Assembly (NCBI GenBank): GCA_951812955.1
Contig: OX638340.1
Location: 3,616,001-3,680,000, forward strand
Direction of reading: 5' to 3'
DNA from: an uncultured Gemmatimonadota bacterium
GTDB lineage: Bacteria > JAAXHH01
Length of the DNA stretch: 64,000 nt
This document shows positions 12,867 through 63,839 of this stretch, in pieces (position 1 is the stretch's first letter; every line of letters starts with the position of its first letter). The notes beneath the pieces are model-generated. The model did not search any database. It had not been told where the DNA came from and saw only the letters and a program-made list of their open reading frames with translations. Position numbers and translations under genes: made by a program.

Positions 12867-13670
12867 ATGACTGTGATCTCAAAACGCATACTGCCCGGCG
12901 AGCGTCTCGACGACGCCTGGATGGAAGAAATACTCACGGACTTTTACAGGGACGGTTTCGCCCTTATACCGGGTGTGTTGACCCGGGATGAAATCGATGC
13001 CCTCCGCGAGGTGACGGACCGCTGCTTCAACGATCCCGTGCTGGCCGGCACTGATTACCTGAGCGGGCAGGGGGACGGATTCGTGCTCCGCAATACATTG
13101 GAACTGGACGCCGTATTCGTGGACATGCTGATTCGGGAGCCGATCCTGAGTCTGGCTGAAGCCGTCGTGGGAGAGGACTGTAAGTTCTGCGGGCAGAACG
13201 TGATCCGGAACGCGCCGGGCCAGGCCATTTCGCTGTGGCACGTGGACGACCGGGTGGAGTTCCCGTTGCCGGAAGACGTGCACCGCCACGACCCCCGCAT
13301 CCGCATGCCGGTGCAGTGGTTCACCATCCAGATGGCCCTGACAGATATCGATTCGGTGGAGGATGGTCCTACGCAGTTCGTGCCGGGCAGCCAGTATTCC
13401 GGCAGAGATCCCAACAGCCAGGAAAATCCGGAGTTCGAAGGCAGAGGACCGGTCTCTGCGTTATGCAAGGCGGGCGACGTCTACCTGCAGAACAACCAGT
13501 GCTGGCACCGGGGAGCGCCCGTCACATCGGATCAGATGCGCTATGTCTTCCAGTCCCAGTACGCCGCCCGTTGGGCCCACAGGCGGTTCAACGAGTATAA
13601 CCACGTACCTGTGCCGCCCACGGTTCTAAGCCGGGCCTCGGACAGGCTGCGTGGGGTGCTGGGTGCGTGA
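12867..13670 (+). CDS. PhyH-family Fe(II)/2OG dioxygenase (paralog 1)
   Basis: It has WHVDD (HxD), ALTDIDSVEDGPTQFVPGS and a distal CWHRG. A GTG at 12873 has better SD spacing (GGAG + 6 nt). Confidence 0.8.
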   Translation: MTVISKRILPGERLDDAWMEEILTDFYRDGFALIPGVLTRDEIDALREVTDRCFNDPVLAGTDYLSGQGDGFVLRNTLELDAVFVDMLIREPILSLAEAVVGEDCKFCGQNVIRNAPGQAISLWHVDDRVEFPLPEDVHRHDPRIRMPVQWFTIQMALTDIDSVEDGPTQFVPGSQYSGRDPNSQENPEFEGRGPVSALCKAGDVYLQNNQCWHRGAPVTSDQMRYVFQSQYAARWAHRRFNEYNHVPVPPTVLSRASDRLRGVLGA

Positions 13671-13760
13671 CGACATGTGCTCAGGTCGGCTTGGCTATTT
13701 AACGGGGCATCCGGCCGATTGCGCAGGCCGGTACCTGGCATGGCCTGATGTACGTCTTGA

Positions 13761-14966
13761 TTAGTGCACGATAGTATCGAACCGCGCGGGCAGCGCCACC
13801 TCGAGCAGCTCGAGGTCGTCGGAGCGGTCCGTGAGGGACGTTTTCGTGTGCGGCGGAATCACGTAGGCGTCTCCCGCCTCCAGCCGGTGTGCGCCCTGGT
13901 CATCCCCGTTCAGGGTCACCTCGCCTTCCATGACGAAGGTGAAGAGGATATCGCCAGTGTGGCTCGTGACCTGTTCCGCGCCTGACGGGCTTCCCTGTTC
14001 GCCTCCTCCGCCGGGGCCTGCGTATTCGCCGCTGATCGTGCCTCCTTGCGCGGAGCCATTCGAGCCGCTGTTCGCACGTGCGACCTGCACCGATGCTACG
14101 CCGCCCGTCGCCTCGCCGATCCCTGTTTCCCGGGCTTCGAATCCCGCTAGTCTCCAGGGTTTCCAGACCGCGTCTTTGAGCTGATGGCGGCAGAATGTCT
14201 GACCGCCGAAGACACGATCGGGGTTCAGCACTCCTGTCGGCAACTCGACCTCGTGGTCGATGGTGGTCACGTGGTCCGCGGGCACGCCGATTTCGATCAC
14301 CTGCAGGTTGTCGGAAGATTCGAGCACGCGATGCCGGATTTCCGGGGGTTGGATCACGCAGTCCCCCGCCTTGAGCATGAAAGGTGGCCCCTGGTCCTCG
14401 TAGACGAGCTTCACCTCGCCACGGTAACAGAAGATCAACTGGAATCCCACCGTATGATAGTGTACAACGTCGGGAACGGGACCGGCGTCGGGGATCCGGA
14501 TGTGGGAAGCAATGATGCTCCCACCCAGGCGGCCGGGCACCAGGTCGCGGTAGTGCATGCCGGCACGGCCGATTACCCAGGGCGTGTTGTCCTTCAGCCT
14601 CCGCACGAGGAAGGCGTGCTCCGTCGGCGGGATTTCCAGCGGCGGATCGGCCCGCACGATCTCGACCCGTGTGCCGTTCGGCGCGGTGAGTTCGGTCCGG
14701 CCGCCGGCCAGAACCGCCGGATCTCGACACAGGATTCGTATTGTGCCCGGCGGTTCGGACGCGCCCTGCTCCAGCCGGATGGTGAGCCCGTGGCCGGAAA
14801 GTACGGAAACTGACGGGTAGTCGGCGGGGTAGATCTTGTCCATACGGAAACCCAGGGTCTTCATGAAGAAGGCCAGGTCCGCGGACAAGTCCGAGGTCGG
14901 CAGCCGGATCTCGGCGCCCTGGATATTGTCCTCGCGGTTGGTCTGCTTGTCGTCATGCAATTGCAT
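13761..14966 (-). CDS. VOC/glyoxalase-like N-domain plus two cupin domains
   Basis: I chose the start at ATG 14966 (AAGGGAG 8 nt upstream, 13 nt after the upstream stop) rather than 15005. There are two cupin cores: DVVHYHTVGFQLIFCYRGE... and GDILFTFVMEGEVTL... Confidence 0.5.
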   Translation of the reverse strand: MQLHDDKQTNREDNIQGAEIRLPTSDLSADLAFFMKTLGFRMDKIYPADYPSVSVLSGHGLTIRLEQGASEPPGTIRILCRDPAVLAGGRTELTAPNGTRVEIVRADPPLEIPPTEHAFLVRRLKDNTPWVIGRAGMHYRDLVPGRLGGSIIASHIRIPDAGPVPDVVHYHTVGFQLIFCYRGEVKLVYEDQGPPFMLKAGDCVIQPPEIRHRVLESSDNLQVIEIGVPADHVTTIDHEVELPTGVLNPDRVFGGQTFCRHQLKDAVWKPWRLAGFEARETGIGEATGGVASVQVARANSGSNGSAQGGTISGEYAGPGGGGEQGSPSGAEQVTSHTGDILFTFVMEGEVTLNGDDQGAHRLEAGDAYVIPPHTKTSLTDRSDDLELLEVALPARFDTIVH

Positions 14967-14979
14967 ATCGCCAGCTCCC

Positions 14980-16101
14980 TTATCCTTCGAAACGATACTT
15001 CTCAACGACGTCCATGTTCAGCTCCGTACCCAGTCCGGGTTTCACGGGGAGCCGGAAATAGCCGCTTTCCACGACCGGCGGATCGGTCAGCAGGTCGTCG
15101 CGCCAGGGCGCGTCCCATTTTTCGTCCACGAACTCCAGCACCAGTGCGTTTGGGATATTGGCCATGACGTGAAGGCTCGCCGTCGTGGACACGGCGCTGT
15201 TCGGATTATGGGGCGAGACCTGCATGTAGTAGCTTTCCGCCATGGCGGCGATCTTCTTGGTCTCCATGATGCCGCCCGTGCGCACAACGTCGGGCATGAT
15301 CATGTCCACCGCCTGGGCGGCGATCAGGTCCCGGAAGCCGAAGCGCGTATACCGTCGTTCGCCCACGCAAACGGGCACGTTGACGGACGCGGTCACCCGG
15401 GCCAGGGCGTCGATGTTCTCCGGGTGGACCGGCTCCTCGTAGAACAGCAGGCCGATTTCCTCGAGCCGGTTGCCGATGCGGATCGCGGCGCTCGTGGTGT
15501 ACCGGCATCCCACGTCGGTACAGAGGTCCACCCCGTCGCCCACGGCCTCGCGGCACCGGCGCATGTGTTCCAGGGCCATCTTCTCTTCCTTCAGCGTGAC
15601 AGAGCGAGGCGAGTCAATGCGTTCCCCTTTGACCAGCGGATCCGAGGGGAAGTACGCCTTGATGGCGGTAACGCCCTTGGCGGCCAGTTCTGCGCACTCC
15701 TCCGGGTCGGAGGCATGGCTGTAGAACCGAATGCGGTTGCGGCACGGTCCGCCGATGAGATTGTAGATGGGCTGACCGGTGACCTTGCCCACGATGTCCC
15801 AGAGGGCGATCTCGATGCCGCTGATCGCCGCGATGACCGTACCAGTCTGCCCGATCTGCTCCAGGGCGTAGTACATACGGTGGTACAGGTACTCTATGTG
15901 GAACGGATCCTCGCCGATGATGAGCTTGCTCAGTTCGTCCACGGACTGTGCGATGATGGTGCCGCCCGGCCAGTTCGTCGCGTCCCCCAGGCCCACGACC
16001 CCCTCGTCCGTGTAGACCTGCACGAAGACCCACGGCGAGCCGATGTCCGTCGATTTGCGCCAGGACTCCACCAGGTGCACTTTCACATCGGTGATTTTCA
16101 T
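14980..16101 (-). CDS. Enolase-superfamily (mandelate racemase/muconate-lactonizing type) sugar-acid dehydratase-like enzyme
   Basis: MKITDVKVHLV...VFVQVYTDEGVVGLGDAT...AISGIEIALWDIVGKVTGQPIYNLIGG is the classic N-terminal capping-domain pattern. Confidence 0.85.
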   Translation of the reverse strand: MKITDVKVHLVESWRKSTDIGSPWVFVQVYTDEGVVGLGDATNWPGGTIIAQSVDELSKLIIGEDPFHIEYLYHRMYYALEQIGQTGTVIAAISGIEIALWDIVGKVTGQPIYNLIGGPCRNRIRFYSHASDPEECAELAAKGVTAIKAYFPSDPLVKGERIDSPRSVTLKEEKMALEHMRRCREAVGDGVDLCTDVGCRYTTSAAIRIGNRLEEIGLLFYEEPVHPENIDALARVTASVNVPVCVGERRYTRFGFRDLIAAQAVDMIMPDVVRTGGIMETKKIAAMAESYYMQVSPHNPNSAVSTTASLHVMANIPNALVLEFVDEKWDAPWRDDLLTDPPVVESGYFRLPVKPGLGTELNMDVVEKYRFEG

Positions 16102-16215: not shown

Positions 16216-17094
16216 TCAGTCCCGTCGCAGGTTGCTGAACTCCGGTTTCGGACCGCCCTCTTCACGGTCCCACTGCCACAGTTCCGTGTAGGGCGACTGG
16301 GCGTGGAAACCGAAGATGACCGGTCCGTCTTCGCCCGCCCGTTCGAGCACGTCCGGATTGACCACGCGGGGCATCTCGTACTCGCAACGGGTCCAACGCC
16401 TCCGCCAGGGGCTCAACACCGCATAGCGCGGCTGGTCGGTCTGGTTCTTCGTCGTACCATGCCAGGTATTCACGTCGAAGAGCACGAGCGATCCTTCCGG
16501 GGCGACGGCAGTCCGGGCGTTGCCATAGGCCGAATCGGGCACGTCGAGGTACTCGTACCGGTGGCTGCCCGGGACGAACTCCGTCGCGCCGTTGGTCTCG
16601 GTAAAGGGGCTCAGGCAGAAGATCGTGTTCAAGGCGATCGAGTGGCTCGTGATCCGCCGGCCCTCGTCGGCATCGGGCATGGATGCGTCCCGGTTGTGAC
16701 CGGTGATACCGCTGTCGGAATGCAGCCCGTGTCCGCCTTCACCGGGCATCACCACCGATCCGTACACGGCGCTCAAAAGCGCGTCGGGGCCCAGGAAGTG
16801 TCTCGTCAGCCTCAGATGGTCGGGAAGCTGGTAGAACCGTTCGAACACCCGCGCCTTGTTGAAGAGCCATTCGAAACTGCCCCGCTCGCGGTTGGGGTAA
16901 CGTGTTTCGAGTTCCCTTCGCGCTTCCGCGCATTCCTCTGCCGTCAACTGGTCCGTCAGGATGGTGTATCCCTCAACCTTCAGGTCCAGCACGTGGGCTT
17001 GAAAGGATTCGTCTGTCATAGGTTGATTCCGGCTCTCATGTGATGCTTGTTCGACCAGCGCAGGGTTTGGCGGATCAACGGCCGGTATGGCCAT
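16216..17094 (-). CDS. PhyH-family dioxygenase (paralog 2)
   Basis: It has GLHSDSG (HxD), CLSPFTETNGATEFVPGSH and a distal NTWHGTTKN. The start is uncertain (17094 or ATG 17019). Confidence 0.75.
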   Translation of the reverse strand: MAIPAVDPPNPALVEQASHESRNQPMTDESFQAHVLDLKVEGYTILTDQLTAEECAEARRELETRYPNRERGSFEWLFNKARVFERFYQLPDHLRLTRHFLGPDALLSAVYGSVVMPGEGGHGLHSDSGITGHNRDASMPDADEGRRITSHSIALNTIFCLSPFTETNGATEFVPGSHRYEYLDVPDSAYGNARTAVAPEGSLVLFDVNTWHGTTKNQTDQPRYAVLSPWRRRWTRCEYEMPRVVNPDVLERAGEDGPVIFGFHAQSPYTELWQWDREEGGPKPEFSNLRRD

Positions 17095-17120: not shown

Positions 17121-17936
17121 TCAGCGTCCGGCCAGGTCGTCTCCGAGGTCGGTTGCGTCCACTTTGCCTTTCTCCAGGCTCACGCCGACGACGAAGAGCT
17201 CGAGGTCATCGTCCGTATGGTTGTAGATTCCGTGAGCACTGCCCAGGTTATTCAGAATGGCGTCCCCGCGGACGACCTCCTCGGTCTCGCCGTCCACCGT
17301 GATCCGGCCCCGGCCGTTCATGATCATGTAGGCTTCGTCCACGATCTCGTGCCGGTGGTAGCCCACGGAAGTACCCGGCGGCAGTAGGATATGGCAGAGG
17401 TATTCGAAATTTGTCGTGAAATCCCGACTTCCCCATACCTCCCGGAAAAGCACTTCGCCCTTTCCACCGTGATGCCGCCGGGGCTTCAGTAAGGCGCGGT
17501 TGAACCGTCCCACGGGCAATCGATCAGCGGACTCCAGCTTGACCTCTATGCGCGGGTCGTCGAAATCCTCGCACATCGGGGTGCGGGTGGGGTCCACACA
17601 GTGGAAGTTGAAGAACCAGGTATCCTGGTCCGAGTGGTTGTAGATGCCGTGGGATTCACCCGAGCGGAGGGGCACCGCCGCGCCGCCGTCGACTTCGGTC
17701 GTGCGGCCGTTGTGGGTGAACTGCATGGCGTTGTCGATGGTGACGAAGATCTCTTCCGAGTGGATGTGCGTGTGTTGCCCGATGCCGCTGCCGGGCGGGA
17801 AGATGACAGAGTGGATGAACGACCAGGGAGACTTGAACGCCGTCGCATCGAACCCCGGGTTGAAATAGCTCGCCGCGGCGCCGCCGTGGCTGACGCCCAA
17901 TCTCATCTCTTCGCGCCTTGTATGGGTTATCCGCAT
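17121..17936 (-). CDS. Bicupin protein
   Basis: Two cupin metal motifs are present: GIGQHTHIHSEEIFVTIDN and SVGYHRHEIVDEAYMIMNGRG. Confidence 0.6.
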   Translation of the reverse strand: MRITHTRREEMRLGVSHGGAAASYFNPGFDATAFKSPWSFIHSVIFPPGSGIGQHTHIHSEEIFVTIDNAMQFTHNGRTTEVDGGAAVPLRSGESHGIYNHSDQDTWFFNFHCVDPTRTPMCEDFDDPRIEVKLESADRLPVGRFNRALLKPRRHHGGKGEVLFREVWGSRDFTTNFEYLCHILLPPGTSVGYHRHEIVDEAYMIMNGRGRITVDGETEEVVRGDAILNNLGSAHGIYNHTDDDLELFVVGVSLEKGKVDATDLGDDLAGR

Positions 17937-17993: not shown

Positions 17994-18794
17994 CTAAAGG
18001 GCGACTTCCTCGACAGGCTGCGTGCCGGTCTCGTAGGCGGGCCGCCACCGGTCGTGGGCCATGGACTCCTCCTCGCTGAGCCCGCACAGCCAGTTCCAGG
18101 TGTGGATGCGGCGTCTCAGGTCCCGGTAGGATTCCACTCCACTCGTGTATGGCGCGGCCGGCCGGTCGCGGTACACGGGGATTTCTTCCGAATCGATGAG
18201 CCAGTCGCGCTGCGGCGGTGCATTGCGGAAGTAGGAGAATTTGATCATGCTGCGGGGCTTGTGATTGAGCTTCGGGCCCGCCCGGTGCCAGATGCCGTAC
18301 CGGGTGATGGCCACGGTGCCGGCCTTCACTACGAGCGAAAGCTGGCCCGTGAGATCGCCGTAGTGGGCGAGGGCGTCGCGGTTGACCGCCCGGCAGTGGG
18401 AACCGGGCAGGATCATGGTCGGCCCGTCTTCGATCCCCACGTCCTGCGGATAATAGTAGCACTGGAGTTCGTTGATCTCGTAACCCTGGCCGGAAATGCC
18501 GTCCGAATGCCAGTCCTGACCCGCGACGGGCTCGTTTATGAGGTGGTGATGGCCGCCCGTCGGCATCAGGAAGTTGGCACCGAGCAGCGAACGTATCACG
18601 CCTGCCAGCCGCGGATGGAGCAGGACTTCGCGGACGAAATCCGGTGAACCGACCAGTTCCTTCGCGCGGCCGACCTTGACGTTGCGGCACTGCGCGTTGA
18701 AACCGGGATCCACCATTTCTTCAAGCACCGCGTAACCCTTCGCCACGAAATCCATCACGTCGTCGTCGGTCATTGTCGGTCTGATCTCCGCCAT
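17994..18794 (-). CDS. PhyH-family dioxygenase (paralog 3)
   Basis: It has QDWHSDG (HxD), DVGIEDGPTMILPGSH and a distal GIWHRAG. Confidence 0.75.
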   Translation of the reverse strand: MAEIRPTMTDDDVMDFVAKGYAVLEEMVDPGFNAQCRNVKVGRAKELVGSPDFVREVLLHPRLAGVIRSLLGANFLMPTGGHHHLINEPVAGQDWHSDGISGQGYEINELQCYYYPQDVGIEDGPTMILPGSHCRAVNRDALAHYGDLTGQLSLVVKAGTVAITRYGIWHRAGPKLNHKPRSMIKFSYFRNAPPQRDWLIDSEEIPVYRDRPAAPYTSGVESYRDLRRRIHTWNWLCGLSEEESMAHDRWRPAYETGTQPVEEVAL

Positions 18795-18806: not shown

Positions 18807-19235
18807 TCAGTTCCACTTCTCGAGTATGAAATCGAAACCCACGTAGTCGTTTTCCAGGTCCTTGTACTCGTACAGCTTGGGGATGGGGTACTGCACCACG
18901 CGCCACCCGTCGGCAACGGCCTCCAGCACGGAGTCGTACGGCGGCTCGTCGCCCGGCAGTCTCAGCACGGGCTTCTCGCCGGGAACGAATACCACCCAGC
19001 CCACGATCCCGGACCGCATATTGGTCGACCGTGCGGTCAGGTACATGATCTTCGGCCGGGGCGGGTTTTCCAAGAACGATTCCAGCTTGTCCAGGTCCCG
19101 TTCTTCCAGTGCGCCGTTTTCGAGTTTCCCGCGGCTTTCAGCGATCCACTGCCTGATTTCCGATTGCATTTCGTGATGTCCCTTTGCCGAGTCTGACGTC
19201 GCGGACAATACAGATGCTAAAGGTGTAATGTACAA
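18807..19235 (-). CDS. Hypothetical protein, first gene of the minus-strand PhyH/cupin operon
   Basis: It is co-oriented with the next gene and 12 nt upstream of it. I recognise no motif. An internal ATG at 19169 (MQSEIRQW) is an alternative start. Confidence 0.4.
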   Translation of the reverse strand: MYITPLASVLSATSDSAKGHHEMQSEIRQWIAESRGKLENGALEERDLDKLESFLENPPRPKIMYLTARSTNMRSGIVGWVVFVPGEKPVLRLPGDEPPYDSVLEAVADGWRVVQYPIPKLYEYKDLENDYVGFDFILEKWN

Positions 19236-22242: not shown

Positions 22243-24216
22243 TTGGAACGGACGTACTCCATGTCCTCTGAACCTCCCCGGTCCCGTGGCCCTTCGGCCA
22301 TATCCCTGCGGGCCGGGATCATCGGGCTCGCGCTCTCCGCCGTGGTGGCTTTCTGGGGCCAGTTCGCCGCCGATCACGCCGGTTACAACTATACCACCTA
22401 CGCCCATATCCCCTCGGCGCTGCTGATCCCCTTCCTGATCCTGATCCTGGGTCCCCACGTCCTGCTCAAGAGGCTGGCGCCCGGGTACGCCCTGACGACT
22501 TCCGAGCTGATCGTGATTTTCGTCATGGGCCTGATCGGTTCGATGGTGCCCGACTGGGGCATGACGAGATACCTGGTCTCCCTCATCACGGGGCCCTTCT
22601 ACCATGCGAGTCCCGAGAACCGCTGGGCGGAGACTTTTTTCGAGACCTTGCCCGGGTGGCTCGTGATCAGCGGCAAGACGGACGCGGTACGGGTTTTCTA
22701 CGAAGGCGCCGCGCCGGGTTACCGGATCCCGTGGATGGCCTGGATCTCGCCCCTGCTGTGGTGGATGTCGTGTTTCGCCGCCCTGATGTGGACGGGCGCA
22801 TGCATCGTGGTCATCCTGCGAAAGCAATGGGTCAGCCACGAAAGGCTGCGCTTTCCCCTGGGGGAGGTATCGCTCAACCTGATGGGCGTGGCGAAGGACC
22901 CGAACGAGCCGCCCATGGTCCGCACGACTGCCTTTCGTATCGGCGCCGGCCTGTCGCTGGCCGTCGTGTGCTGGAACATCGCCTCCTACTGGGACATCGT
23001 TACCCCTATCCCCATCATGGGGCCGGACCTGCTGTATCTGAAGGTCCATCCGTCGATACCGGATCTTCCCATCCGGCTGAATGTCTTCGTACTGTGTTTC
23101 GCTTTCTTCATAAACGCCGAGATCCTGTTCAGCCTGTGTTTCTTCCTGCTCTTCACCACGCTGCAGCGGGGGCTGATGAACATGCTCGGGATCACGGCGG
23201 CCACGACCATGTCTCCTACCGGGCTCGTGGGCACCCAGTCCATCGGTGCCCTGATCGCCCTGGTGGTGTGGGGATTGTGGATGGCCCGTCGTCACCTGGC
23301 CGGTGTGGCCCGGCGGGCGTTTCGAAAGGATCCGTCGATCGATGACAGCAGTGAGTTCTTCTCGTACCGGGTGGCGGTTTTCGGATTGATCTTCGGCATG
23401 CTCTACCTGCTGGCATGGCTTTACAGCATCGGCATGTCGCTGCCCGTCAGCCTTGTCCTCCTGGCCGTACTCTTCATCGTCTACATCGGAATGGCCCGGA
23501 TCGTTGCGGAGGCGGGTCTGGTCGCCATGGACCTGCCGGTAACAGCCAACAACTTCACCGGGGGCATTATCGGCGCCGACAACCTGGACCCGTCCTCGAT
23601 CACCGCTATGGGCATGACGAACGCCTTCGCCCGGAACTGGCGGACCTTTACGATGATCGGGCTGTCTCACGCCGCCTACCTGCAGCGCTGGATGGGGCCG
23701 TCCACCCGGCACCTCTTCCTCTGGATCTGCCTGGCCTTCGCCGTCAGTGTCGTAACTTCCCTCTACTACTACATCAGCGCGGGTTATGCAGTCGGCGCCG
23801 ATAATCTGCTGTCCAAGCCCGGCGACCTCGTACCCTTCTTCTACAACACGATCATGACGTGGAACAGCAGCGCAAGCAGTGTCTCGGAACTGGAACTGAT
23901 CTTCTTCGGGAACGGTATCGTCCTGTACATGCTGATGATCCTCGGACGCTTCATGTTTCTCTGGTGGCCGCTGCATCCCATCGGCCTGGTCGCCGTGGCC
24001 GCGGACACCGTGCGGTTCATGTTCCTACCCTTCCTGCTGGCCTGGCTCGTCCAGGTAATCCTGCTGCGCCTGGGTGGAGGAGCCCTTTACCGCAGAGCGC
24101 AGCCCCTGTTTCTCGGCATCCTGGTTGGATATGTCCTTGGGATGGCCCTCTCATTCCTGGTGGACAGCCTGTGGTTTCCGGCCGCACCGCACCAGTTCGA
24201 ATCCTTTATCAACTGA
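22243..24216 (+). CDS. Large polytopic membrane protein of uncharacterised family (paralog A), candidate transporter
   Basis: It is 657 aa with many hydrophobic segments throughout. It shares blocks with 28259-30250: RKQWVSHERLRFPL, WWPLHPIGL and LLRLGGGALYRRAQP. From memory it may be DUF6785/DUF6784-type; not verified. Confidence 0.7.
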   Translation: MERTYSMSSEPPRSRGPSAISLRAGIIGLALSAVVAFWGQFAADHAGYNYTTYAHIPSALLIPFLILILGPHVLLKRLAPGYALTTSELIVIFVMGLIGSMVPDWGMTRYLVSLITGPFYHASPENRWAETFFETLPGWLVISGKTDAVRVFYEGAAPGYRIPWMAWISPLLWWMSCFAALMWTGACIVVILRKQWVSHERLRFPLGEVSLNLMGVAKDPNEPPMVRTTAFRIGAGLSLAVVCWNIASYWDIVTPIPIMGPDLLYLKVHPSIPDLPIRLNVFVLCFAFFINAEILFSLCFFLLFTTLQRGLMNMLGITAATTMSPTGLVGTQSIGALIALVVWGLWMARRHLAGVARRAFRKDPSIDDSSEFFSYRVAVFGLIFGMLYLLAWLYSIGMSLPVSLVLLAVLFIVYIGMARIVAEAGLVAMDLPVTANNFTGGIIGADNLDPSSITAMGMTNAFARNWRTFTMIGLSHAAYLQRWMGPSTRHLFLWICLAFAVSVVTSLYYYISAGYAVGADNLLSKPGDLVPFFYNTIMTWNSSASSVSELELIFFGNGIVLYMLMILGRFMFLWWPLHPIGLVAVAADTVRFMFLPFLLAWLVQVILLRLGGGALYRRAQPLFLGILVGYVLGMALSFLVDSLWFPAAPHQFESFIN

Positions 24217-24368: not shown

Positions 24369-25733
24369 ATGGCCACGAAATCCGGACGCCCCAATCTCCT
24401 GTTTATCATGGACGACCAGCACCGGCACGACTACCTGTCCGCGGCGGGAGCGACCTTCGTGCGCACGCCGAACCTGGACTGTTTGGCGGAACGCGGGGTC
24501 CGATTCAGCCAGTGCATAACCAACGCCCCGGTCTGCGCGCCCGCGCGCATCGGCCTGGCCAGCGGCTACCAGCCCGCGCGGCTGGGGTGCCTGGACAACA
24601 ACTGCTACCTGCCCCGCCATATCACGCCCTATTACGTCCGGCTTCGGGACGCGGGATACCGGGTCGGGTGCGTGGGGAAACTCGACCTGGCCAAGCCGGA
24701 TCCCTACAACGGCCGCCACGGCGACCGAGCCCGGGTGTTCGGTTGGGGTTTCACCCATCCCGTGGAATGCGAAGGCAAGATGCACGCGGGCATGGCGGAC
24801 CAGCCGCGGGGACCTTATGGATTCTGGCTTCAGGAGCAGGGACTCTTCGAACGCTTCCGGACGGATTACGCGGCCCGGGGAGCGCGGGGCTGGATCGAGG
24901 GTGCTTCCCATGATTCTATATTGCCTGAGGACGCTTTCGAGGATGCCTACATTGGCCGCCGCGCCGTGGAATGGATGGACACCGTCCCCGACGATTACCC
25001 GTGGCATCTCTTCGTCAGCTTCGTGGGGCCGCACGATCCCTTCGATCCGCCTACGTCATACGCGGAACGATACCGGGGCGCTGCCGTGCCGCCGGCAATA
25101 CGAAGCAACGAAGAGGGGAAGCCGTCCTGGGTCAACGCCCGTCGGCGCGACCTGTCCGAAGATGAAGTGGCAGTTACGCGCCGGCAGTATTGCGCGGTCA
25201 TCGAACTGATCGACGACCAGGTAGGCCGGATCATCGAAGCCGTAGAACGGCGGGGCATGGCGGAGGATACCATCGTCGTGTTCGCCAGCGACCACGGCGA
25301 AATGCTGGGCGACCATGGCCTGTACACCAAATCCGTTCCCTACGAGGTGGCCCTGCGCGTGCCGCTCATTGCCGCTGGACCAGGCATAGCGGGAGGGCGT
25401 ACTTCCGACGCCCTCGTGGAACTGATCGACGTCAATCCGACCCTGTGCGGTCTGGCGGGTCTGCCCGCCCAGGAAGGGCTCGACGCCAGCGACTTCAGCG
25501 CCGTGCTCACCGGGGATCGTTCGACCCACCGCGAGGAAGCGGCCAGCGCGCTTCGCGAATTCCGGCTCGTACGCACGGCGGATCACAAGCTTGTGGTGCA
25601 CCACACGGGTGAAACGGAGCTATACGACCTGAAAAACGATCCTGAAGAGCTTGAAAACGTGGCGGCCGATCGGCCCGATGCGGTCAACGCGCTGCGAAGG
25701 CGTCTGCAGCGGCGATTTCACTTCCCGCCCTAA
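24369..25733 (+). CDS. Formylglycine-dependent sulfatase, no signal peptide
   Basis: It has PNLLFIMDDQHRHD and the CxPxR signature VCAPARIGLASG. The catalytic domain begins at about residue 8. Confidence 0.85.
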   Translation: MATKSGRPNLLFIMDDQHRHDYLSAAGATFVRTPNLDCLAERGVRFSQCITNAPVCAPARIGLASGYQPARLGCLDNNCYLPRHITPYYVRLRDAGYRVGCVGKLDLAKPDPYNGRHGDRARVFGWGFTHPVECEGKMHAGMADQPRGPYGFWLQEQGLFERFRTDYAARGARGWIEGASHDSILPEDAFEDAYIGRRAVEWMDTVPDDYPWHLFVSFVGPHDPFDPPTSYAERYRGAAVPPAIRSNEEGKPSWVNARRRDLSEDEVAVTRRQYCAVIELIDDQVGRIIEAVERRGMAEDTIVVFASDHGEMLGDHGLYTKSVPYEVALRVPLIAAGPGIAGGRTSDALVELIDVNPTLCGLAGLPAQEGLDASDFSAVLTGDRSTHREEAASALREFRLVRTADHKLVVHHTGETELYDLKNDPEELENVAADRPDAVNALRRRLQRRFHFPP

Positions 25734-32717: not shown

Positions 32718-32765
32718 AATAGTATTACCTCTCTTGGATGGGTTGGTGAATCCAACTGGAGCGGC

Positions 32766-44097: not shown

Positions 44098-44165
44098 ACA
44101 ACAGTCATTCAGGCAACAGGACCGGAGCGCGTCTTAGGCGCGTTACAGAAAGGTATTTCAATCCG

Positions 44166-44930: not shown

Positions 44931-44934
44931 GCGG

Positions 44935-52946: not shown

Positions 52947-53900
52947 TTACCCGTACATCCGGATCGGGGTGGGCTCGGTGGGACGGTTCTTTCGGGGCGG
53001 ACGCTGCGTAGTGACCTTCAGCGCCTCCTCCCAGCCCCGGCTCCACGTGTTGTAGTCCGCTAGCACGAATTCGGGATGGCGCTGGCTGCGGACGATGAAG
53101 TTGGGGTAGAAGGATCGTCCCGTGGGCAGGCCGGTCTGCTGATACCGCAGGTCGAGACTCCACCGGATCGATCCCGATCGGTTGGGGATGGACCGGTGCG
53201 GGATCAGCTTGTGCATGAGCAGCACGTCGCCCTTCTTCATCGGCAAAGACAGGACCTTGCCTTCGGGCAACCCGCTTTCTTCGATGCCGAATCCTTCGCT
53301 CCAGTATACGGTGCCGCGGTGGTGTACGCGGGGGATGATCTGCAGGCATCCGTTCTCTTCGTCGGTATCGCACAGGGGCAGCCAGACGGTGAGAATAAAG
53401 ACCGGATCGGCGTCTTCTTGGTGCACCTGCGCGTCCTGGTGCCAGGGCGCCACATTTTCTTTGACACGCGCAGCCAGGGCGTTCTCGTCGCCGCTGCCGT
53501 TGCCGCCACTATCGCCACTGGCCACGGCCTCCGGCAACTTCGCCCGCAGATGCTGTATGGGGCTGCACGTGATTTCGGGTCCGACGAGAGACCCCACCAG
53601 GTTCAGCATCCGGTCGTTACCGAGAAATCGGAATACCGCTTCGGCACGCATGTGCATGATGTCGATATCGTCATAGATCGAGGGGTTTTCCCGGGTGATC
53701 AGGGCCAGCCGTCGCTCGAAGGGTTCTCCCTCGTGAAGTTCGGTAATTCGTCCTTCTTCATGGAGACTGCGCGCCCGTCCGTCCACGAACGCTTCGATCC
53801 CGGCGATGACGGGATCCAGATCATCACCGGTGAGCGCTCCCTTTACGATGACGTATCCTTCATCTACAAAATGCTGAAACTGATCCTGTGTGAGTGCCAT
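52947..53900 (-). CDS. PhyH-family dioxygenase (paralog 10)
   Basis: It has LTQDQFQHFVDEGYVIVKG, PWHQDAQ (HxD), WLPLCDTDEENGCLQIIP and a distal LIPHRSIPN. Confidence 0.8.
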   Translation of the reverse strand: MALTQDQFQHFVDEGYVIVKGALTGDDLDPVIAGIEAFVDGRARSLHEEGRITELHEGEPFERRLALITRENPSIYDDIDIMHMRAEAVFRFLGNDRMLNLVGSLVGPEITCSPIQHLRAKLPEAVASGDSGGNGSGDENALAARVKENVAPWHQDAQVHQEDADPVFILTVWLPLCDTDEENGCLQIIPRVHHRGTVYWSEGFGIEESGLPEGKVLSLPMKKGDVLLMHKLIPHRSIPNRSGSIRWSLDLRYQQTGLPTGRSFYPNFIVRSQRHPEFVLADYNTWSRGWEEALKVTTQRPPRKNRPTEPTPIRMYG

Positions 53901-59248: not shown

Positions 59249-62053
59249 ATGATTACGTTGTTTAAAAACGGACTACCACAGTCACAGATCGTGCTGTCCC
59301 CTTCGTCCGGACCGGCAGAACGGCGTGCCGCTCTCGAGTTCCAGCGCATCGCGAAATGCATGTGCGGTGTTGAACTGCCCATACATAAGGTGTCGGACGG
59401 ACAATCTCCAGCCGGCGCCGATGGATCTCCAGCCGGCGCCGATGGATCAGATCCCGTCCCCGGAGACGCCTCAGGTCGGGTATACATCGGGTGGGCGCCT
59501 CAGGATCTCGCCATCAATCTCTCCGAAACCGCCCTGGGCTACGACGGTTATGTCATCCTGTGCGCCGGCAACATACTGGTGCTGACAGGACGAAAGCCCT
59601 ACTCGGCGCTTTATGCCGCGTACCGCCTGTTCGAAGAACATCTTGGCTGCGGTTTCTTCGAAGAAGGCGAGCAGATTCCCCGGACGGATACCGTCTCGAT
59701 TGGCGAACTGACGGACTACCGCAAGCCCCGGTTCAAGTGGCGGATGTATTTTGCGAACATGCAGGATGCCTACAGCGGCATGCGCTGGTGGACCTGGGAG
59801 GAGTTCAAACCCTGGATCGACTACCTGGTCAAGAAACGGTTCAACATCCTCGAGAGCGGCAACATCGCGGACTGTTGCGGCATCGGCGCGCTGGCGGCCA
59901 ACCGGCTGGGCGTACCGGTGGAACTGACCGACTGGCAGAAAGCGCGCATCGCGTTGCTGCGGCGCGTCTTCGACTATGCCCGGGAGGCCGGAATCCGGAT
60001 CCGGTACCGCATGCAGCTTCACGTGGGCACGCCCGCGGTCAATCCCGGTTTTTCTCCCTACGCTGACGGCCGACAACTCCAGGAATTCGTGGACGGGTAC
60101 GAGGCCATGACCGGCGCGAAGATCCGCGTGGCGCCCCTGGAGTGGTGCGGCGAGTCCGAGATCGTCCTCGACCCGCGGGACCCGGTGACCCGGCGGTTCA
60201 CAACCGCCGTGGTGGAGTCTTACGGACAAGCGCTGGGTACGGACCATCTCTACAGCCTGTGGCTGCCCACGGAGGAGACCTGGGTGGAGGATGACCCGGA
60301 CCGGGCCGCGGAACTGACCCGCGCGTCCGTCGACGGCATGATCCAGGCCATCCGGGAAGGCGACCCGGACGCGGTGCTGTTCAGCCCACGGGTGTGCACG
60401 GACAATCCCACGGCGGCCGCACAGGCGCAGGCGGTCCGGGACGCAGGCCTGCCCGTGATCGGCAACATGTTCCTCAACCACGGCGGCCGCATGTACGACT
60501 TCCTGCGGTGCGACTACTACTGGGGCCTGCCGTGGTCCACGGGCATGTGCGGCCAGTGCGGCCGGGAGACCAACCCCAACGGCGATATCGAAACGGCGAT
60601 CAACAATGCCCGGTCGCTGGCGGATCACCCAAAGGCGCGGAACCTCCAGGGCTTCATGGTGTCGACCGAAACCAACCATCGGAACGTCATGACCATGGAT
60701 CTCTACGCGGAGCTGTCGTGGAATCCAGCGGACCTGGATCCCGACGACTACATCGAACGGTGGAACCGCAGGAGATACGGACCGGCGGCCGAAGGCACCC
60801 GTCCAGCCGTCCGGATATTCGCCGAAACGATCATGGCCTACTTCGACCCGTGCACCCACAACGGTCCGCTTTACCGAAACTGGGACGGCACCCTGCTGCC
60901 CGGTCTCACTTCCGGGTCCGTCAAACGGCTCATCGGATTCCTGCCGTCCCTACACGAGATGCTCGAGATCCTGCTTTCCCCGTACGATAAACTCGGAGAT
61001 TCCCCCATGTACCGCTTCGACCTGGTGGATATCGGACGCACCTACCTGGCGGGCATCTTCAACCATCGCCTGGCTGACGCGCGCAAGGCCTTTCGCGCCG
61101 GGGACAGGGAAAGGTTCGAGCGAATGGCCGGGGAGACGGAGCAGGTAATGCTCGCCATGGCCCGGTACTGCAGTGCCCATGAGCAGTTCAGGCTGAAGAC
61201 CCACGACGAATGGGCGGCGCGGTGGCCCGAGATCGTGCCCGGCCACGCCAACGGCGAAAGCAACTGGATCACCTTCACCGCGCTGATTTCCCTGGAAAAC
61301 TGGCAGGTGCTGCTGGACTACCTGCCGGAAGATTTCGCCGAGATGATCGTCCACTATTTCCTCCCCCGCGTGCGGCAGTACATCGACCGGATGCGGACGA
61401 TGATGGACCGGGGCGAGGATATTTCGGAACGGCTGGTGGACCGGGATTCAGACGTGGATCTGCCGTCCCGCGTGGCGAATTGGTCGACGCCCCAGGGCAA
61501 CACGCCCTGGTCGCCCTACGGGGACACCTGCGAGCCCGAGTTGACCGAAGAGGACGAAGCACTCGCCCTTAGGCTCATCAAGGCCGGATCCGTAAGCGGC
61601 AGCTACGACTATTATGAGGGTCCACTCGATACGCTCGTCCGCGAGATGCTGGACGAGTTCCCGTCCCCCGGGGACATCGAGGAGATCCTCGCGGAGGAAG
61701 ACTACGCGCCGCCGAGTAACCGGCTGGTATTGCACGGCGTCCCCGGTGAGACGATCGAGGGCTTCAACGTGCCCGGTTTCGTGGAAAGGGTCGAGGTCCC
61801 GCGAGAACTCCAGAATCTCATCGCGGTGCGCGAGGTACGCAGGGAGTACAATATCGCCCGGGGTGAGATCGCCCTGTACCAGGTGACCGTACCGCCGGAG
61901 GTCGAACTGACCCGCCTCGAAGACGTATCCGCTTCCTCGGACGGCCACGATGTTGCGGTATTCACCTTCCAGGAGGGAGCAACTGATTACAAGGTATGGT
62001 TCGACAGCGGGACGGACCTGGACGTGGCCTCTTTGGTAGTGAAACGGATTTAG
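59249..62053 (+). CDS. Alpha-N-acetylglucosaminidase (NAGLU, GH89)-like protein with an extra C-terminal region, no signal peptide
   Basis: FKWRMYFANMQDAYSGMRWWTWEEFKPWIDYLVKKRFNILE resembles the start of the GH89 TIM barrel. The protein is 934 aa. A 21-nt duplication lies near the N-terminus. Confidence 0.5.
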   Translation: MITLFKNGLPQSQIVLSPSSGPAERRAALEFQRIAKCMCGVELPIHKVSDGQSPAGADGSPAGADGSDPVPGDASGRVYIGWAPQDLAINLSETALGYDGYVILCAGNILVLTGRKPYSALYAAYRLFEEHLGCGFFEEGEQIPRTDTVSIGELTDYRKPRFKWRMYFANMQDAYSGMRWWTWEEFKPWIDYLVKKRFNILESGNIADCCGIGALAANRLGVPVELTDWQKARIALLRRVFDYAREAGIRIRYRMQLHVGTPAVNPGFSPYADGRQLQEFVDGYEAMTGAKIRVAPLEWCGESEIVLDPRDPVTRRFTTAVVESYGQALGTDHLYSLWLPTEETWVEDDPDRAAELTRASVDGMIQAIREGDPDAVLFSPRVCTDNPTAAAQAQAVRDAGLPVIGNMFLNHGGRMYDFLRCDYYWGLPWSTGMCGQCGRETNPNGDIETAINNARSLADHPKARNLQGFMVSTETNHRNVMTMDLYAELSWNPADLDPDDYIERWNRRRYGPAAEGTRPAVRIFAETIMAYFDPCTHNGPLYRNWDGTLLPGLTSGSVKRLIGFLPSLHEMLEILLSPYDKLGDSPMYRFDLVDIGRTYLAGIFNHRLADARKAFRAGDRERFERMAGETEQVMLAMARYCSAHEQFRLKTHDEWAARWPEIVPGHANGESNWITFTALISLENWQVLLDYLPEDFAEMIVHYFLPRVRQYIDRMRTMMDRGEDISERLVDRDSDVDLPSRVANWSTPQGNTPWSPYGDTCEPELTEEDEALALRLIKAGSVSGSYDYYEGPLDTLVREMLDEFPSPGDIEEILAEEDYAPPSNRLVLHGVPGETIEGFNVPGFVERVEVPRELQNLIAVREVRREYNIARGEIALYQVTVPPEVELTRLEDVSASSDGHDVAVFTFQEGATDYKVWFDSGTDLDVASLVVKRI
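59405..59446 (+). repeat. Perfect 21-nt in-frame tandem duplication
   Basis: tctccagccggcgccgatgga is present twice and encodes SPAGADG SPAGADG. Confidence 0.9.
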
Positions 62054-62195
62054 CGCGGGCCGCATATAACGCCAGCGGTTTGTATGACGCGTAACGGCGG
62101 AGTTTCCTTTTGACAGCCGCTGACCTCGCCGCTTAACATTGCATAGGGTTTAGCATACCGTCTGCACCGCGGAACATTGTCCGGAGCATCGACCT

Positions 62196-63002
62196 ATGAT
62201 GCCTGCACCGGAAGACTACGACCTCGACCTCAAAGTAGCGGAACTCAAGATCAATGGGTTTACGGCCTTTGAAGATCTCATTCCGCCAGAGAAGATCGAC
62301 CGGATTCGTGAGGCGTTCCTGCCCAGACTGAACCGGCTCAGGGATCGCGAGAAAGGCGGGATTCATCCGGAAGAGCGGGGTGAGGTGAGCACGGGAAAGG
62401 GGCGCCAGCAGTTCATCAACCGCTTTACGATGCACGTGCCCTGGGAGACTCCTTTCTCCGATCCGGATATCTACGAGAACCCGGTCGTGCTGGCCTTTCT
62501 CGAGAGATACTGGGGCGCGGACGATTTTCAAATCACCTGCTATCATTCCAACAACCCCTACCCAGGCAGTGAATTTCAACCGTGGCACCGGGACATCCAC
62601 CTGATCACGCCCCACGTGGGCCTGCCGGTCTGTCCCCACTTCGGCATCAAGTTTCCCCTCGTGGACACGAACGAGGAAAACGGCAGCTTCGAGGTCATGC
62701 CCGGCACCCAGTACCTGGCGGACCCGGAAATGGAGAAGGCGTACGACGAGATCCTGTGCAACGGCCATTTCCCGGGCGCGCACCGGATGAACCTGAAGAA
62801 AGGGACCATGTGGGTGCAGGACCCAAGAACCCTGCACCGGGGTACGCCGAACCGGTCCGATCACGCCCGCATGGAACTGGTCATCTGCTATTCCCGGCCG
62901 TGGTTCCGTCCGTCGACCGTAGAGATATCGCAGGCGGAATATGACAAACTATCTGAACGCGGCCGGGCAATGCTGACACGCAGCATCATCACGGCGTCCT
63001 GA
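62196..63002 (+). CDS. PhyH-family dioxygenase (paralog 12)
   Basis: It has PWHRDIH (HxD), PLVDTNEENGSFEVMPGT and a distal RTLHRGTPN. Confidence 0.75.
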   Translation: MMPAPEDYDLDLKVAELKINGFTAFEDLIPPEKIDRIREAFLPRLNRLRDREKGGIHPEERGEVSTGKGRQQFINRFTMHVPWETPFSDPDIYENPVVLAFLERYWGADDFQITCYHSNNPYPGSEFQPWHRDIHLITPHVGLPVCPHFGIKFPLVDTNEENGSFEVMPGTQYLADPEMEKAYDEILCNGHFPGAHRMNLKKGTMWVQDPRTLHRGTPNRSDHARMELVICYSRPWFRPSTVEISQAEYDKLSERGRAMLTRSIITAS

Positions 63003-63044
63003 CCCCTTTCATCTGCCTACCGCGATCTGTATGAGGAGCAGCCC

Positions 63045-63839
63045 ATGTTGACCGAGGCCCAGATCGCCCATTTCCAGACCTTCGGATTCCTGGTCATACG
63101 ACAGGCCTTCACGCGTTCGGAGGTGGAGGCACTGATCCGGGAGGCCGATGCGGCTTACGCGGCGAAATCGGACCGCGAAAAAGACGGCTCGTCTTCGATG
63201 TGGACATCTGAGTTAGTAGAGGAACGCCCGGCCTTGATGAAGCTGATGGAGGACGACCGGATCTACCTGTCCATAGGCGGACTCCTGGGCCGGGATTTCA
63301 TCTGGAACGGGTCCGAAATCATGTGGGGGATCGACCCGACGCTGGCCGATCACACCTGGCATTTCGATGGCCATAAGACCTCGCGGAATCTCGACTATCC
63401 GCGGACCAAGGTCATGCTGTACCTCGATCCCCAGCGGAGGGACACCGGCGCGCTGCGCGTCATCCCCGGTTCCCATCGGGATCCTCTTCACAAAGCGCTG
63501 TTCCCCCTTCAGGACGCCCACCTGGGCGGAGACCCCAACCCTTACGGCGTCGAGGGACCGCAGATTCCCGCCTGCGCCATCGAAACGGATCCGGGCGACA
63601 TCGTCTTCTTCAACCAGTGGCTGTATCACGCGGTGTACGGCAAGGAGGGAAAACGGAGGGTCATCGTCCTCAAGTTCGGACCCCGGCCACGGACGCACGC
63701 CCATCTGGCCATGCTGCGGGACGGCGCACCTGCCGGGTTTGCGCCACATCCGGCTTTAAGCAACAGCAAGCGTCTCCGTATCAGGCGACTGGCCGAGGCG
63801 TGCTCCGAACTCGAAGCGCAGGTTGAAAAACTGGATTGA
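63045..63839 (+). CDS. PhyH-family dioxygenase (paralog 13)
   Basis: It has LTEAQIAHFQTFGFLVIRQAF, TWHFDGH (HxD), DTGALRVIPGSH and a distal WLYHAVYG. Confidence 0.8.
   Translation: MLTEAQIAHFQTFGFLVIRQAFTRSEVEALIREADAAYAAKSDREKDGSSSMWTSELVEERPALMKLMEDDRIYLSIGGLLGRDFIWNGSEIMWGIDPTLADHTWHFDGHKTSRNLDYPRTKVMLYLDPQRRDTGALRVIPGSHRDPLHKALFPLQDAHLGGDPNPYGVEGPQIPACAIETDPGDIVFFNQWLYHAVYGKEGKRRVIVLKFGPRPRTHAHLAMLRDGAPAGFAPHPALSNSKRLRIRRLAEACSELEAQVEKLD

Follow-up and report, generated by a model that had tools for sequence, protein, structure and literature searches.

A 51 kb island of thirteen diverged PhyH-family Fe(II)/2-oxoglutarate oxygenase genes amid degradative genes in an uncultured Gemmatimonadota bacterium

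The stretch of DNA analysed, referred to throughout as the window, comprised 64,000 nucleotides (nt) of contig OX638340.1 (positions 3,616,001 to 3,680,000, forward strand) from an uncultured Gemmatimonadota bacterium (GenBank assembly GCA_951812955.1). Within it, an island of approximately 51 kb carries thirteen genes for PhyH-family Fe(II)/2-oxoglutarate (2OG) oxygenases amid degradative genes. The paralogs were numbered D1 to D13 and are given below with window coordinates, strand, length in amino acids (aa) and score against the Pfam model PF05721 (PhyH), for which the gathering score is 22 bits.

12867..13670, plus strand: D1, 267 aa, 70 bits, HxD...H...R motif
16216..17094, minus strand: D2, 292 aa, 70.3 bits, directly upstream of an enolase-superfamily gene, with syntenic orthologs
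17994..18794, minus strand: D3, 266 aa, 41 bits
19534..20283, plus strand: D4, 249 aa, 56.7 bits, orthologs aligning over 249 aa
21400..22227, plus strand: D5, 275 aa, 29.8 bits, the lowest score of the thirteen
25788..26624, minus strand: D6, 70.8 bits, HxG...Dx3H motif, between the two sulfatase genes
40860..41711, plus strand: D7, 283 aa, 50.3 bits, 49% identical to D11
44911..45741, plus strand: D8, 124.9 bits, PHYHD1-like
47376..48209, plus strand: D9, 277 aa, 98.5 bits, HxD retained
52947..53900, minus strand: D10, 317 aa, 78.8 bits, beside D11 also in the relatives' loci L085 and L086
53932..54720, minus strand: D11, 262 aa, 49.8 bits
62196..63002, plus strand: D12, 268 aa, 66.5 bits, present in L085
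63045..63839, plus strand: D13, 264 aa, 53 bits, the last gene of the island

PF05721 was matched by all thirteen open reading frames (ORFs), with scores ranging from 29.8 (D5) to 124.9 bits (D8). A hidden Markov model was built from the thirteen paralogs and run over all six-frame ORFs of the window that were 80 aa or longer. Exactly those thirteen were recovered, and no fourteenth PhyH ORF was found. D7 and D11 are 49% identical over 266 aa, the highest value among the paralogs, and D13 is 30-32% identical to each of them. The remaining pairs are approximately 20-30% identical over long alignments, such that clustering at 60% identity would keep all thirteen apart. A preliminary description of this DNA, made from the letters alone, had counted thirteen PhyH-family genes and called them diverged, with only those starting at 40860 and 54720 (minus strand) close to one another. 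Both statements were borne out. Its starts at 19534, 26624 (minus strand) and 40860 likewise match ortholog lengths of 249, 278 and 283 aa. The island comprises approximately 44 genes, of which the 13 PhyH genes make up approximately 30%; even if PhyH genes occurred at the 2% published for Poribacteria, 13 or more among 44 would arise by chance with a binomial probability of approximately 2e-12. The earlier statement that this density is far above that of ordinary genomes is true but not new, PhyH enrichment in Poribacteria having already been published (PMC3909097).

Alignment of the thirteen sequences identified an N-terminal G(Y/F) strand, HxD, (D/E)xG...PGSH, a distal His and a downstream Arg. 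HxD and the distal His occupy aligned columns in 12/13 paralogs, D6 being the exception. The Arg lies 11-13 residues past the distal His in 13/13 and is assigned, by analogy, as the putative ligand of the 2OG C5-carboxylate. In D5, H-x-D, the distal His and the Arg are in register with the D3 family. All thirteen proteins appear to be catalytically intact and cytoplasmic. The motif set of the preliminary description therefore stands for twelve paralogs and fails for D6, which has H-S-G followed by D-x3-H.

In D6, H-S-G replaces HxD and an Asp is found four residues ahead of the distal His. The metal site of HygX is H-x-G ... E-x3-H, with the acid relocated (PMC13374393). A PDB search with D6 returned HygX as the top match (expect value, E, 2e-13), and the D-x3-H of D6 aligned to the E-x3-H of HygX. 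Both D6 motifs were kept in 6/6 D6 orthologs examined. In two metagenome-assembled genomes (MAGs) labelled Gemmatimonadota, the PhyH gene immediately preceding the enolase ortholog also encodes HxG...Ex3H. D6 is accordingly read as a probable HygX-type relocated-triad variant with the Asp as putative metal ligand. A halogenase role for D6, suggested by its HxG, was rejected: the criterion for a halogenase is HxA/G without a replacement carboxylate, and in D6 the HygX-type relocated acid is both aligned and conserved in orthologs. One Poribacteria PhyH likewise carries HxG...Ex3H; the comparison genes for this metal site are L040 9123-10001, L043 6516-7460 and L050 794-1648.

The double-stranded beta-helix fold was seen for D3, for which an AlphaFold2 (AF2) model was used (predicted local distance difference test score, pLDDT, 82.7). 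D3 had no PDB match by sequence. The top 50 Foldseek matches of its model in the PDB were all Fe/2OG oxygenases, including HygX, KanJ, SptF, TlxJ and FtmOx1, with HygX nearest and KanJ next (E 1e-9, template-modelling score, TM, approximately 0.5).

Relatives were found by scanning with the enolase-superfamily protein encoded beside D2, taking one genome per species; phylum names are those of the record labels, and the relatives' loci (numbered with the prefix L) were examined in stretches of up to 22 kb. Enolase orthologs 94-97% identical were found in MAGs labelled Ca. Latescibacterota, "Gemmatimonadetes" or "bacterium", several of which are closed chromosomes of 3.7-3.9 Mb. The exact sequence of the window's own enolase-superfamily protein had no match in the collection searched, so the window itself is not part of it. 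Window DNA is 92-96% identical to MAGs and contigs of this clade (L001, L002, L085, L087) and 94% identical to OY762445.1 over 18 kb. Over the D5-D6 stretch a 629-kb ENA contig reaches 96% identity, and over the second half of the window a 210-kb contig reaches 92-94%. The isolate names APA_bin_41, SB0665_bin_8, IRC1_bin_16 and Plut_88884, together with the accession prefixes, would point to sponge and coral projects. Going by the literature (PMC7081726), the clade may correspond to a PAUC34f-type lineage. A link to sponge-associated or PVC (Planctomycetes-Verrucomicrobia-Chlamydiae)-related lineages had been proposed earlier; the sponge part was supported, the nearest genomes being sponge and coral MAGs, and the PVC part was not, as those MAGs are labelled Latescibacterota or "Gemmatimonadetes".

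D1-D5 have one-to-one orthologs in the same order and orientation in approximately 25 species-level genomes, at 69-99% aa identity (D1, 79-95%; D5, 69-96%). D6 orthologs were present in all six loci that reach the D6 position. Synteny of the remaining part of the island holds in L085, L086 and L088, the last two belonging to a closed 3.73 Mb genome with approximately 80-85% DNA identity to the window. At the D7 position L088 carries a D7-like PhyH, P0223, which is 50% identical to D11. The ratio dN/dS for D1-D5 against three relatives was 0.045-0.14 (D1, 0.05-0.11), the same range as for the enolase-superfamily gene. Because syntenic orthologs extend to approximately 80% DNA identity and dN/dS is low, the paralogs are ancient, and each is individually maintained by purifying selection.

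The gene after D13 in L085 and L086 encodes an RND (ACR_tran) pump. As this pump follows D13 in relatives, the D12/D13 side is taken as the end of the island. No further PhyH gene was found within 10 kb downstream of D13 in L080. A metagenome scan with D13 returned only two loci; a D13 of 97% identity is present on metagenome contig MKWU01000410.1. Where D12 would be expected, L086 has no more than a 136-aa ORF without a Pfam match. In L080 D12 is truncated by a deletion of approximately 260 bp, and the D12-D13 pair lies in different flanks, with 1.5 kb in common with the window.

Signs of a mobile island were also sought. No tRNA genes were found in the window, no DNA-level repeats between paralogs were found in it, and Pfam scans of the ORFs tested turned up no integrase or transposase. 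The GC content of the island is similar to that of the rest of the window, the first 8 kb excepted. A mobile island or recent duplication was rejected on the lack of tRNA genes and of inter-paralog repeats and on the similar GC content. Recent tandem duplication as the origin of the paralogs was rejected on their low pairwise identity, the lack of DNA repeats and the conserved order in relatives.

The genes that accompany the paralogs are given below.

7287..8468, plus strand: Tat-signal molybdopterin oxidoreductase of the sulfite-oxidase family (Oxidored_molyb; SRRDLL), outside the island
13761..15005, minus strand: large bicupin, 414 aa, Cupin_2 in two stretches, last gene of a minus-strand operon
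14980..16101, minus strand: enolase-superfamily protein, acid-sugar dehydratase-like, 373 aa, MR_MLE_N and MR_MLE_C
17121..17936, minus strand: small bicupin, 271 aa, Cupin_2 in two stretches, weak PDB cupin matches only
18807..19169, minus strand: conserved protein of approximately 119 aa and unknown function, 12-nt gap to D3
22261..24216, plus strand: DUF6785/DUF6784 membrane protein, putative importer, 651 aa, PF20581 and PF20580, 14 hydrophobic segments
24369..25733, plus strand: sulfatase A, SGSH-like, Sulfatase and SGSH_C, CAPAR, domain from residue 8, no signal peptide
26809..28182, plus strand: sulfatase B, SGSH-like, Sulfatase and SGSH_C, CVPFR, N-terminus opening the domain, no signal peptide
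28259..30250, plus strand: second DUF6785/DUF6784 membrane protein, 663 aa, PF20581 and PF20580, 11 hydrophobic segments
30798..35702, minus strand: FmdA/AmdA amidase with a repeat tail, pyridoxal phosphate (PLP) enzyme (PALP) and membrane-anchored gamma-glutamyltranspeptidase (GGT), all from Pfam, same order in L088
35797..40680: class V aminotransferase, NIPSNAP, APC permease with TrkA_C and second FmdA/AmdA amidase (minus strand), from Pfam
41708..44930: Amidohydro_2 (minus strand), class I/II aminotransferase and HpcH/HpaI-type aldolase, from Pfam
45744..46427, plus strand: TenA/THI-4/PqqC-family protein, PF03070 at 147.8 bits, directly downstream of D8
50425..52215, minus strand: SBP_bac_5 solute-binding protein, signal- or lipoprotein-like N-terminus, conserved in L085, L086 and L088
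54788..55867, minus strand: BNR_2 beta-propeller protein, from Pfam, no signal peptide
59249..62053, plus strand: NAGLU (GH89 alpha-N-acetylglucosaminidase)-like protein, 934 aa, NAGLU and NAGLU_C, no signal peptide, upstream of D12 and D13

In all, two FmdA/AmdA amidases, two Amidohydro_2 proteins, a GGT, one PALP enzyme and two aminotransferases were tallied. The preliminary description had named bicupins, an enolase-superfamily protein, an HpcH aldolase, TenA, sulfatases, BNR-type proteins, a Tat molybdoenzyme and, at 30284, a Minf_1886-like gene. All of these annotations hold, the last by TIGR04138 at 134 bits (cut-off 60). Its placing of the paralogs in different small operons also agrees with gene spacing and synteny. 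Gene order in the syntenic loci is conserved through the middle and right-hand parts of the island. First come the second DUF6785 protein, Minf_1886, amidase, PLP enzyme, GGT, aminotransferase, NIPSNAP and second amidase. Next are D7, Amidohydro_2, aminotransferase, HpcH, D8, TenA, DnaJ and D9, the D8-TenA order being the same in L085, L086 and L088. Last are Ada/ECF, the SBP_bac_5 protein, YgjV, D10, D11, BNR, NAGLU, D12 and D13; the NAGLU-like gene is conserved in L085 and L086.

The PDB matches of the enolase-superfamily protein were putative, galactonate, rhamnonate and mannonate dehydratases, and the protein is therefore predicted to fall in the acid-sugar dehydratase group. The large bicupin adjoins it in L001 and L019 too. 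The HpcH aldolase gave sub-threshold NCBIfam matches to HpaI, GarL and RhmA.

Little could be matched for the 119-aa protein, which is without a Pfam or NCBIfam hit. Its gene was always found 12 nt upstream of a D3-type PhyH gene (L082 8636-9010, L083 8629-8988, L084 8629-8988), in contigs labelled Phycisphaeraceae, Gemmatimonadetes and Poribacteria, with variable wider context. The protein may be a dedicated partner or subunit of D3-type PhyH proteins.

For the DUF6785 protein at 22261..24216, an AF2 model (pLDDT 85.8) gave barley Yellow Stripe 1 as the only significant PDB fold match (TM 0.66-0.71, E 1e-8). Yellow Stripe 1 is a member of the OPT/YSL superfamily, which carries peptides and aminocarboxylate chelates. 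On the model, the DUF6785 proteins are putative importers of OPT/YSL fold. No literature on DUF6785 was found. DUF6785/DUF6784 genes are multi-copy in these genomes and repeatedly lie beside SGSH-like sulfatases and PhyH genes (also L089 10001-13921). Both sulfatases of the island need formylglycine at CxPxR and are apparently cytoplasmic; neither a formylglycine-generating enzyme nor an anaerobic sulfatase-maturing enzyme was seen in the window.

Several smaller features were recorded. A 36-nt tandem repeat of approximately 11 copies (30904-31312) lies inside the amidase gene at 30798-32717 (minus strand) and encodes a low-complexity C-terminal tail of 12-aa units resembling AAGNEPEAKDAK; the L088 ortholog is approximately 100 aa shorter (533 vs 639 aa). 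The APC permease with TrkA_C (37583-39658, plus strand) has no counterpart in the syntenic L088. Between BNR_2 and a 603-aa unknown ORF, 40 nt are directly duplicated in tandem (56017-56096; 88% identity). The slot upstream of D5 holds a PIN-domain protein in the window (20754-21395, plus strand) and an AAA_15 ATPase plus a 137-aa ORF in the 96%-identical L087 (1-1092); it is possibly a small variable site for a toxin or defence gene. Outside the island, the first 8 kb have a GC content of 0.55-0.56, against approximately 0.60-0.62 elsewhere in the window, and contain (1650-5870 region) an N6/N4 DNA methylase gene (3986-5122) and unannotated ORFs. The gene at 10814-12592 (minus strand), conserved in L001, encodes a 592-aa protein in which an S-adenosylmethionine-dependent methyltransferase is fused to an HNH nuclease domain.

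Beyond the close clade, enolase orthologs of 73-79% identity were found in MAGs labelled Poribacteria, Gemmatimonadota, Chloroflexia, Anaerolineaceae and other Latescibacterota (L021-L048), in different contexts. D3 has 186 homologs at E<=1e-5; among the 120 matches listed, identity is 57-90% and several phylum labels occur. D11 has 2286 homologs at the same threshold. Enolase and D3 families that are 57-79% identical between records of different phylum label suggest that marine and sponge bacteria have exchanged these genes horizontally. In a close relative, a region 140 kb away contains two DUF6785 genes, two SGSH-like sulfatases, two PhyH genes, HpcH, Gfo/Idh/MocA and short-chain dehydrogenases, and a similar gene set surrounds D3 orthologs in contigs labelled Gemmatimonadetes and Poribacteria. 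This region 140 kb away, sampled through its DUF6785 genes, has 2 PhyH genes in approximately 21 genes; a DUF6785-anchored sample from another genome had 0 in approximately 19. These observations suggest that PhyH is expanded more widely in the clade and that the window is a hot spot.

PDB sequence searches were also made with D1, D2, D8, D9 and D11, and the closest solved relatives were KanJ for D1 (E 5e-5), EasH for D2 (E 8e-9) and PHYHD1 for D8 (E 1.4e-23). For D9 the top match was an uncharacterised monooxygenase, 6zyk (E 1e-18), followed by SyrB2, MysH, SnoK and EctD. D11 had no solved relative below E 1e-3. Human PHYH (2a1x) was only a weak match in the searches with D6, D8 and D9 (E 1e-8 to 0.1). 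Among NCBIfam models, those reached at sub-threshold scores include EctD, chlorinating-enzyme, methylphosphonate hydroxylase and 1-deoxypentalenate hydroxylase models. The best paralog score was 30 bits for EctD (TIGR02408; cut-off 336.5) and, for the halogenase model TIGR01762, 77.9 bits (cut-off 226) from D9, which keeps HxD. Phosphonate PhnY*/PhnZ models (NF052437 and related) gave at most 37 bits against 500, and no HD-domain neighbour appeared in the Pfam scans.

We consider it probable, though well short of certain, that the locus is a vertically inherited cytoplasmic catabolic island of approximately 51 kb in a sponge- or coral-associated bacterium, in which each PhyH protein acts on a different substrate. 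Cytoplasmic catabolism is proposed because the sulfatases, the NAGLU-like protein and the BNR protein lack signal peptides and because importers, a dehydratase and an aldolase adjoin. Whereas family membership, intact metal and 2OG ligands, purifying selection, synteny and the identity of neighbours were established directly, the substrates and the logic of the pathway are what we infer.

Import would proceed via the two DUF6785 proteins (OPT/YSL fold), the APC permease and the SBP_bac_5 binding protein. Each paralog would then use Fe(II), 2OG and O2 to hydroxylate one C-H bond of a different small polar cytoplasmic substrate. Likely substrates, supplied by the host or by dissolved organic matter (DOM), would be decorated sugars, amino sugars, sugar acids and metabolites that resemble amino acids or peptides. 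A hydroxyl group introduced beside O or N would give an unstable hemiacetal or hemiaminal, with loss of a methyl, alkyl or amino group, and the same route could open acetal or ether bonds that resist hydrolases. Hydroxylation elsewhere could supply the hydroxyl group needed by the neighbouring dehydratase, transaminase or retro-aldolase. Carbon would then pass to pyruvate and an aldehyde, the aldolase probably being of class II, for 4-hydroxy-2-oxo or 2-keto-3-deoxy acids. In the D8 module (aminotransferase, aldolase, PhyH, TenA-like protein), hydroxylation followed by transamination and retro-aldol cleavage would be possible. Precedents exist within the family. KanJ, a PhyH-family enzyme, oxidatively deaminates an amino sugar. 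Ribose is O-demethylated by the PF05721 members PHYHD1, FJS and a Poribacteria enzyme (PMC12709175), acetals are opened by the PF05721 members MahX and MahS (PMC9676059), and HygX acts on a glycoside (PMC13374393).

Several points weigh against this catabolic interpretation. OPT/YSL-fold importers favour peptide or aminocarboxylate over sugar substrates and leave the substrate class ambiguous. Operon structure is predicted from gene spacing and synteny alone. For none of the thirteen did NCBIfam yield an equivalog, scores being given as 5-20x below cut-offs. Matches with solved enzymes are weak (E 1e-5 to 1e-23; TM approximately 0.5 for D3), and the closest solved relatives are biosynthetic tailoring, not catabolic, enzymes. 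Given the OPT-like importers, the GGT, the amidases and the PLP enzymes, peptide- or amino-acid-like substrates are as plausible as sugars or glycans. The preliminary description had proposed oxidative catabolism, possibly of sulfated or sulfonated glycans, amino-sugar or branched-chain compounds. Of this, a sulfated-glycan or amino-sugar link remains plausible from the SGSH-like sulfatases, NAGLU, BNR_2, dehydratase and HpcH proteins and the proximity of D1, D3 and D6 to KanJ or HygX, but the importers place amino-acid- and peptide-like substrates beside it on equal terms. Branched-chain (phytanoyl-type) catabolism was not upheld, Pfam scans of the ORFs tested having detected no coenzyme A (CoA) ligase or thiamine pyrophosphate (TPP) lyase. 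Nor was sulfite release, the sole basis for which is a molybdoenzyme encoded 4 kb away from the island; sulfatases yield sulfate, not sulfite.

Among the alternatives, the one that survives best concerns D8, which might be a demethylase of 2'-O-methylnucleosides (or of sugar O-methyl groups) of the PHYHD1/FJS type. PHYHD1 is its closest solved relative, and bacterial PF05721 members, including one from Poribacteria, are active in vitro (PMC12709175). Identity to that assayed Poribacteria enzyme is, however, only 26%, D8 being the closest of the thirteen and none being its ortholog, and the operon partners of D8 (aminotransferase, HpcH aldolase, TenA-like protein) hint at an amino-acid or oxo-acid route. 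We regard this assignment as unlikely.

A biosynthetic origin would make the locus one or several gene clusters in which PhyH proteins tailor a secondary metabolite (aminoglycoside-like, mycosporine-like or a modified amino acid). The nearest solved relatives are indeed tailoring enzymes (HygX, KanJ, EasH, SnoK, MysH, SyrB2), and D8 is flanked by a TenA/PqqC-family protein and PLP enzymes. Yet no polyketide synthase, nonribosomal peptide synthetase, terpene synthase, glycosyltransferase or sugar-nucleotide enzyme was detected in Pfam scans of the ORFs tested; the island abounds in importers, sulfatases and amidases and also encodes a GH89-like protein and a retro-aldolase. Single paralog families moreover occur widely among pelagic and sponge bacteria, with differing neighbours. 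Such clusters seem improbable to us.

The preliminary description had also suggested oxidative desulfonation or desulfation by some paralogs (TauD/AtsK-like), the sulfite being oxidised by the Tat-exported molybdoenzyme. That enzyme, of the sulfite-oxidase family, is syntenic in L001 and L019, and sulfatases adjoin D5 and D6. Its scores are far under the cut-offs for SorA (144 bits against 600) and SoxC (137 bits against 420), however, and its gene belongs to a group outside the island with Amidohydro_2 and a UxuA-like protein. Hydrolytic sulfatases liberate sulfate, and known sulfonate-pathway genes were not found in Pfam scans of the window. We judge this explanation improbable as well.

The functions offered by default annotation (phytanoyl-CoA alpha-oxidation, ectoine hydroxylation, halogenation and PhnY*/PhnZ phosphonate use) have in their favour the Pfam family name, the weak NCBIfam matches to EctD, chlorinating-enzyme and methylphosphonate hydroxylase models and the proposal that some Poribacteria PhyH proteins are phnY-like (PMC3909097), but are very improbable in view of the low scores given above, the lack of acyl-CoA ligase, TPP lyase, HD phosphohydrolase, ectoine-synthesis and carrier-protein genes in Pfam scans of the ORFs tested, the Asp kept by D9, which is the best halogenase-model match, and the HygX-like relocated acid of D6. 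Phytanoyl-CoA 2-hydroxylase proper was rejected on the absence of AMP-binding and TPP-enzyme domains (acyl-CoA ligase and TPP lyase) from the same scans and the weak match to PHYH.

The proposed catabolic island was compared with known systems. In six poribacterial single-cell genomes PF05721 was the most abundant Pfam domain, at more than 1.9% of genes, and 305 Poribacteria PhyH sequences formed 193 clusters at 60% identity, with mostly unknown functions and a few phnY-like members (Kamke et al. 2014, PMC3909097). PhyH transcripts are abundant in hospite in Poribacteria (Jahn et al. 2016, PMC5087111). As in the island, the same family is over-represented in a sponge symbiont, the copies are diverse and sulfatases co-occur. 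Poribacteria also carry the same enolase ortholog (77-79% identity), with a D1-like PhyH (50-56%) a few kb upstream. The island differs in its lineage, labelled Latescibacterota/Gemmatimonadetes, in its 13 copies (approximately 30% of genes) within one syntenic 51 kb stretch, as opposed to approximately 2% genome-wide, and in having no phnY/phnZ-type pair.

HygX and the orthosomycin oxygenases EvdO/AviO (PDB 4XC9, 4XCA, 4XCB; PMC13374393) act on glycosides. D6 shares the H-x-G ... acid-x3-H motif, and HygX is closest to D6 by sequence and to D3 by model. The relationship is distant, with 15-18% identity in the D3-HygX structural alignment and Asp in D6 where HygX has Glu; no aminoglycoside biosynthetic context is present, and D6 is flanked by two cytoplasmic sulfatases. 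The kanamycin B dioxygenase KanJ (PDB 6S0R, 7CL2) is the best sequence match of D1 and a top fold match of D3, but at only E 5e-5 and TM approximately 0.45, respectively, and the island contains no biosynthetic cluster. The PHYHD1/FJS demethylases (PMC12709175) share PF05721 with the island, D8 being nearest to PHYHD1, and provide a case of catabolic sugar O-demethylation within the family; identity of the island paralogs to the assayed Poribacteria enzyme is at most 26%, none being its ortholog.

In SAR202, expansions of enolase-superfamily proteins and flavin-dependent monooxygenases have been proposed to serve recalcitrant DOM and non-phosphorylative sugar-acid catabolism (PMC10444878, PMC5395668). 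Both systems have many ancient paralogs of one catabolic family, each presumed to have its own substrate, and accessory genes overlap (enolase-superfamily dehydratase, Amidohydro_2, HpcH aldolase, sulfatases). Here, by contrast, the expanded family is PhyH, the phylum is another and the paralogs are physically clustered.

More generally, PhyH panels could be oxidative "decapping" enzymes, a strategy common to unrelated sponge-symbiont and marine phyla through gene transfer. The targets would be O-methyl, N-alkyl or amino, acetal or ether and other hydrolase-resistant groups on small sulfated or aminated metabolites. Entry through OPT/YSL-like DUF6785 proteins, the HygX-like relocated-triad subfamily and the D3 subfamily with its 119-aa partner would be parts of it. 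This generalisation is tentative, and we hold it to be doubtful.

No literature on PhyH enrichment in Latescibacteria or PAUC34f was found. The island extends a known Poribacteria phenomenon to a second abundant symbiont lineage, and what it adds is clustering, synteny and partner genes; the enrichment itself is unlikely to surprise specialists in sponge symbionts. For the role of the many PhyH oxygenases of sponge symbionts, a question that dates from 2014, the island provides compact, syntenic targets for expression and substrate screening in the form of small, stable operons whose partner genes can be recognised: bicupins and an acid-sugar dehydratase; an aminotransferase, a TenA-like protein and an aldolase; OPT-like importers and sulfatases. 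The partner genes also suggest concrete substrate classes. If the substrates are indeed host- or DOM-derived decorated sugars or amino compounds, the enzymes of the island would account in part for the nutrition of symbionts within sponges and would widen the range of Fe/2OG chemistry.

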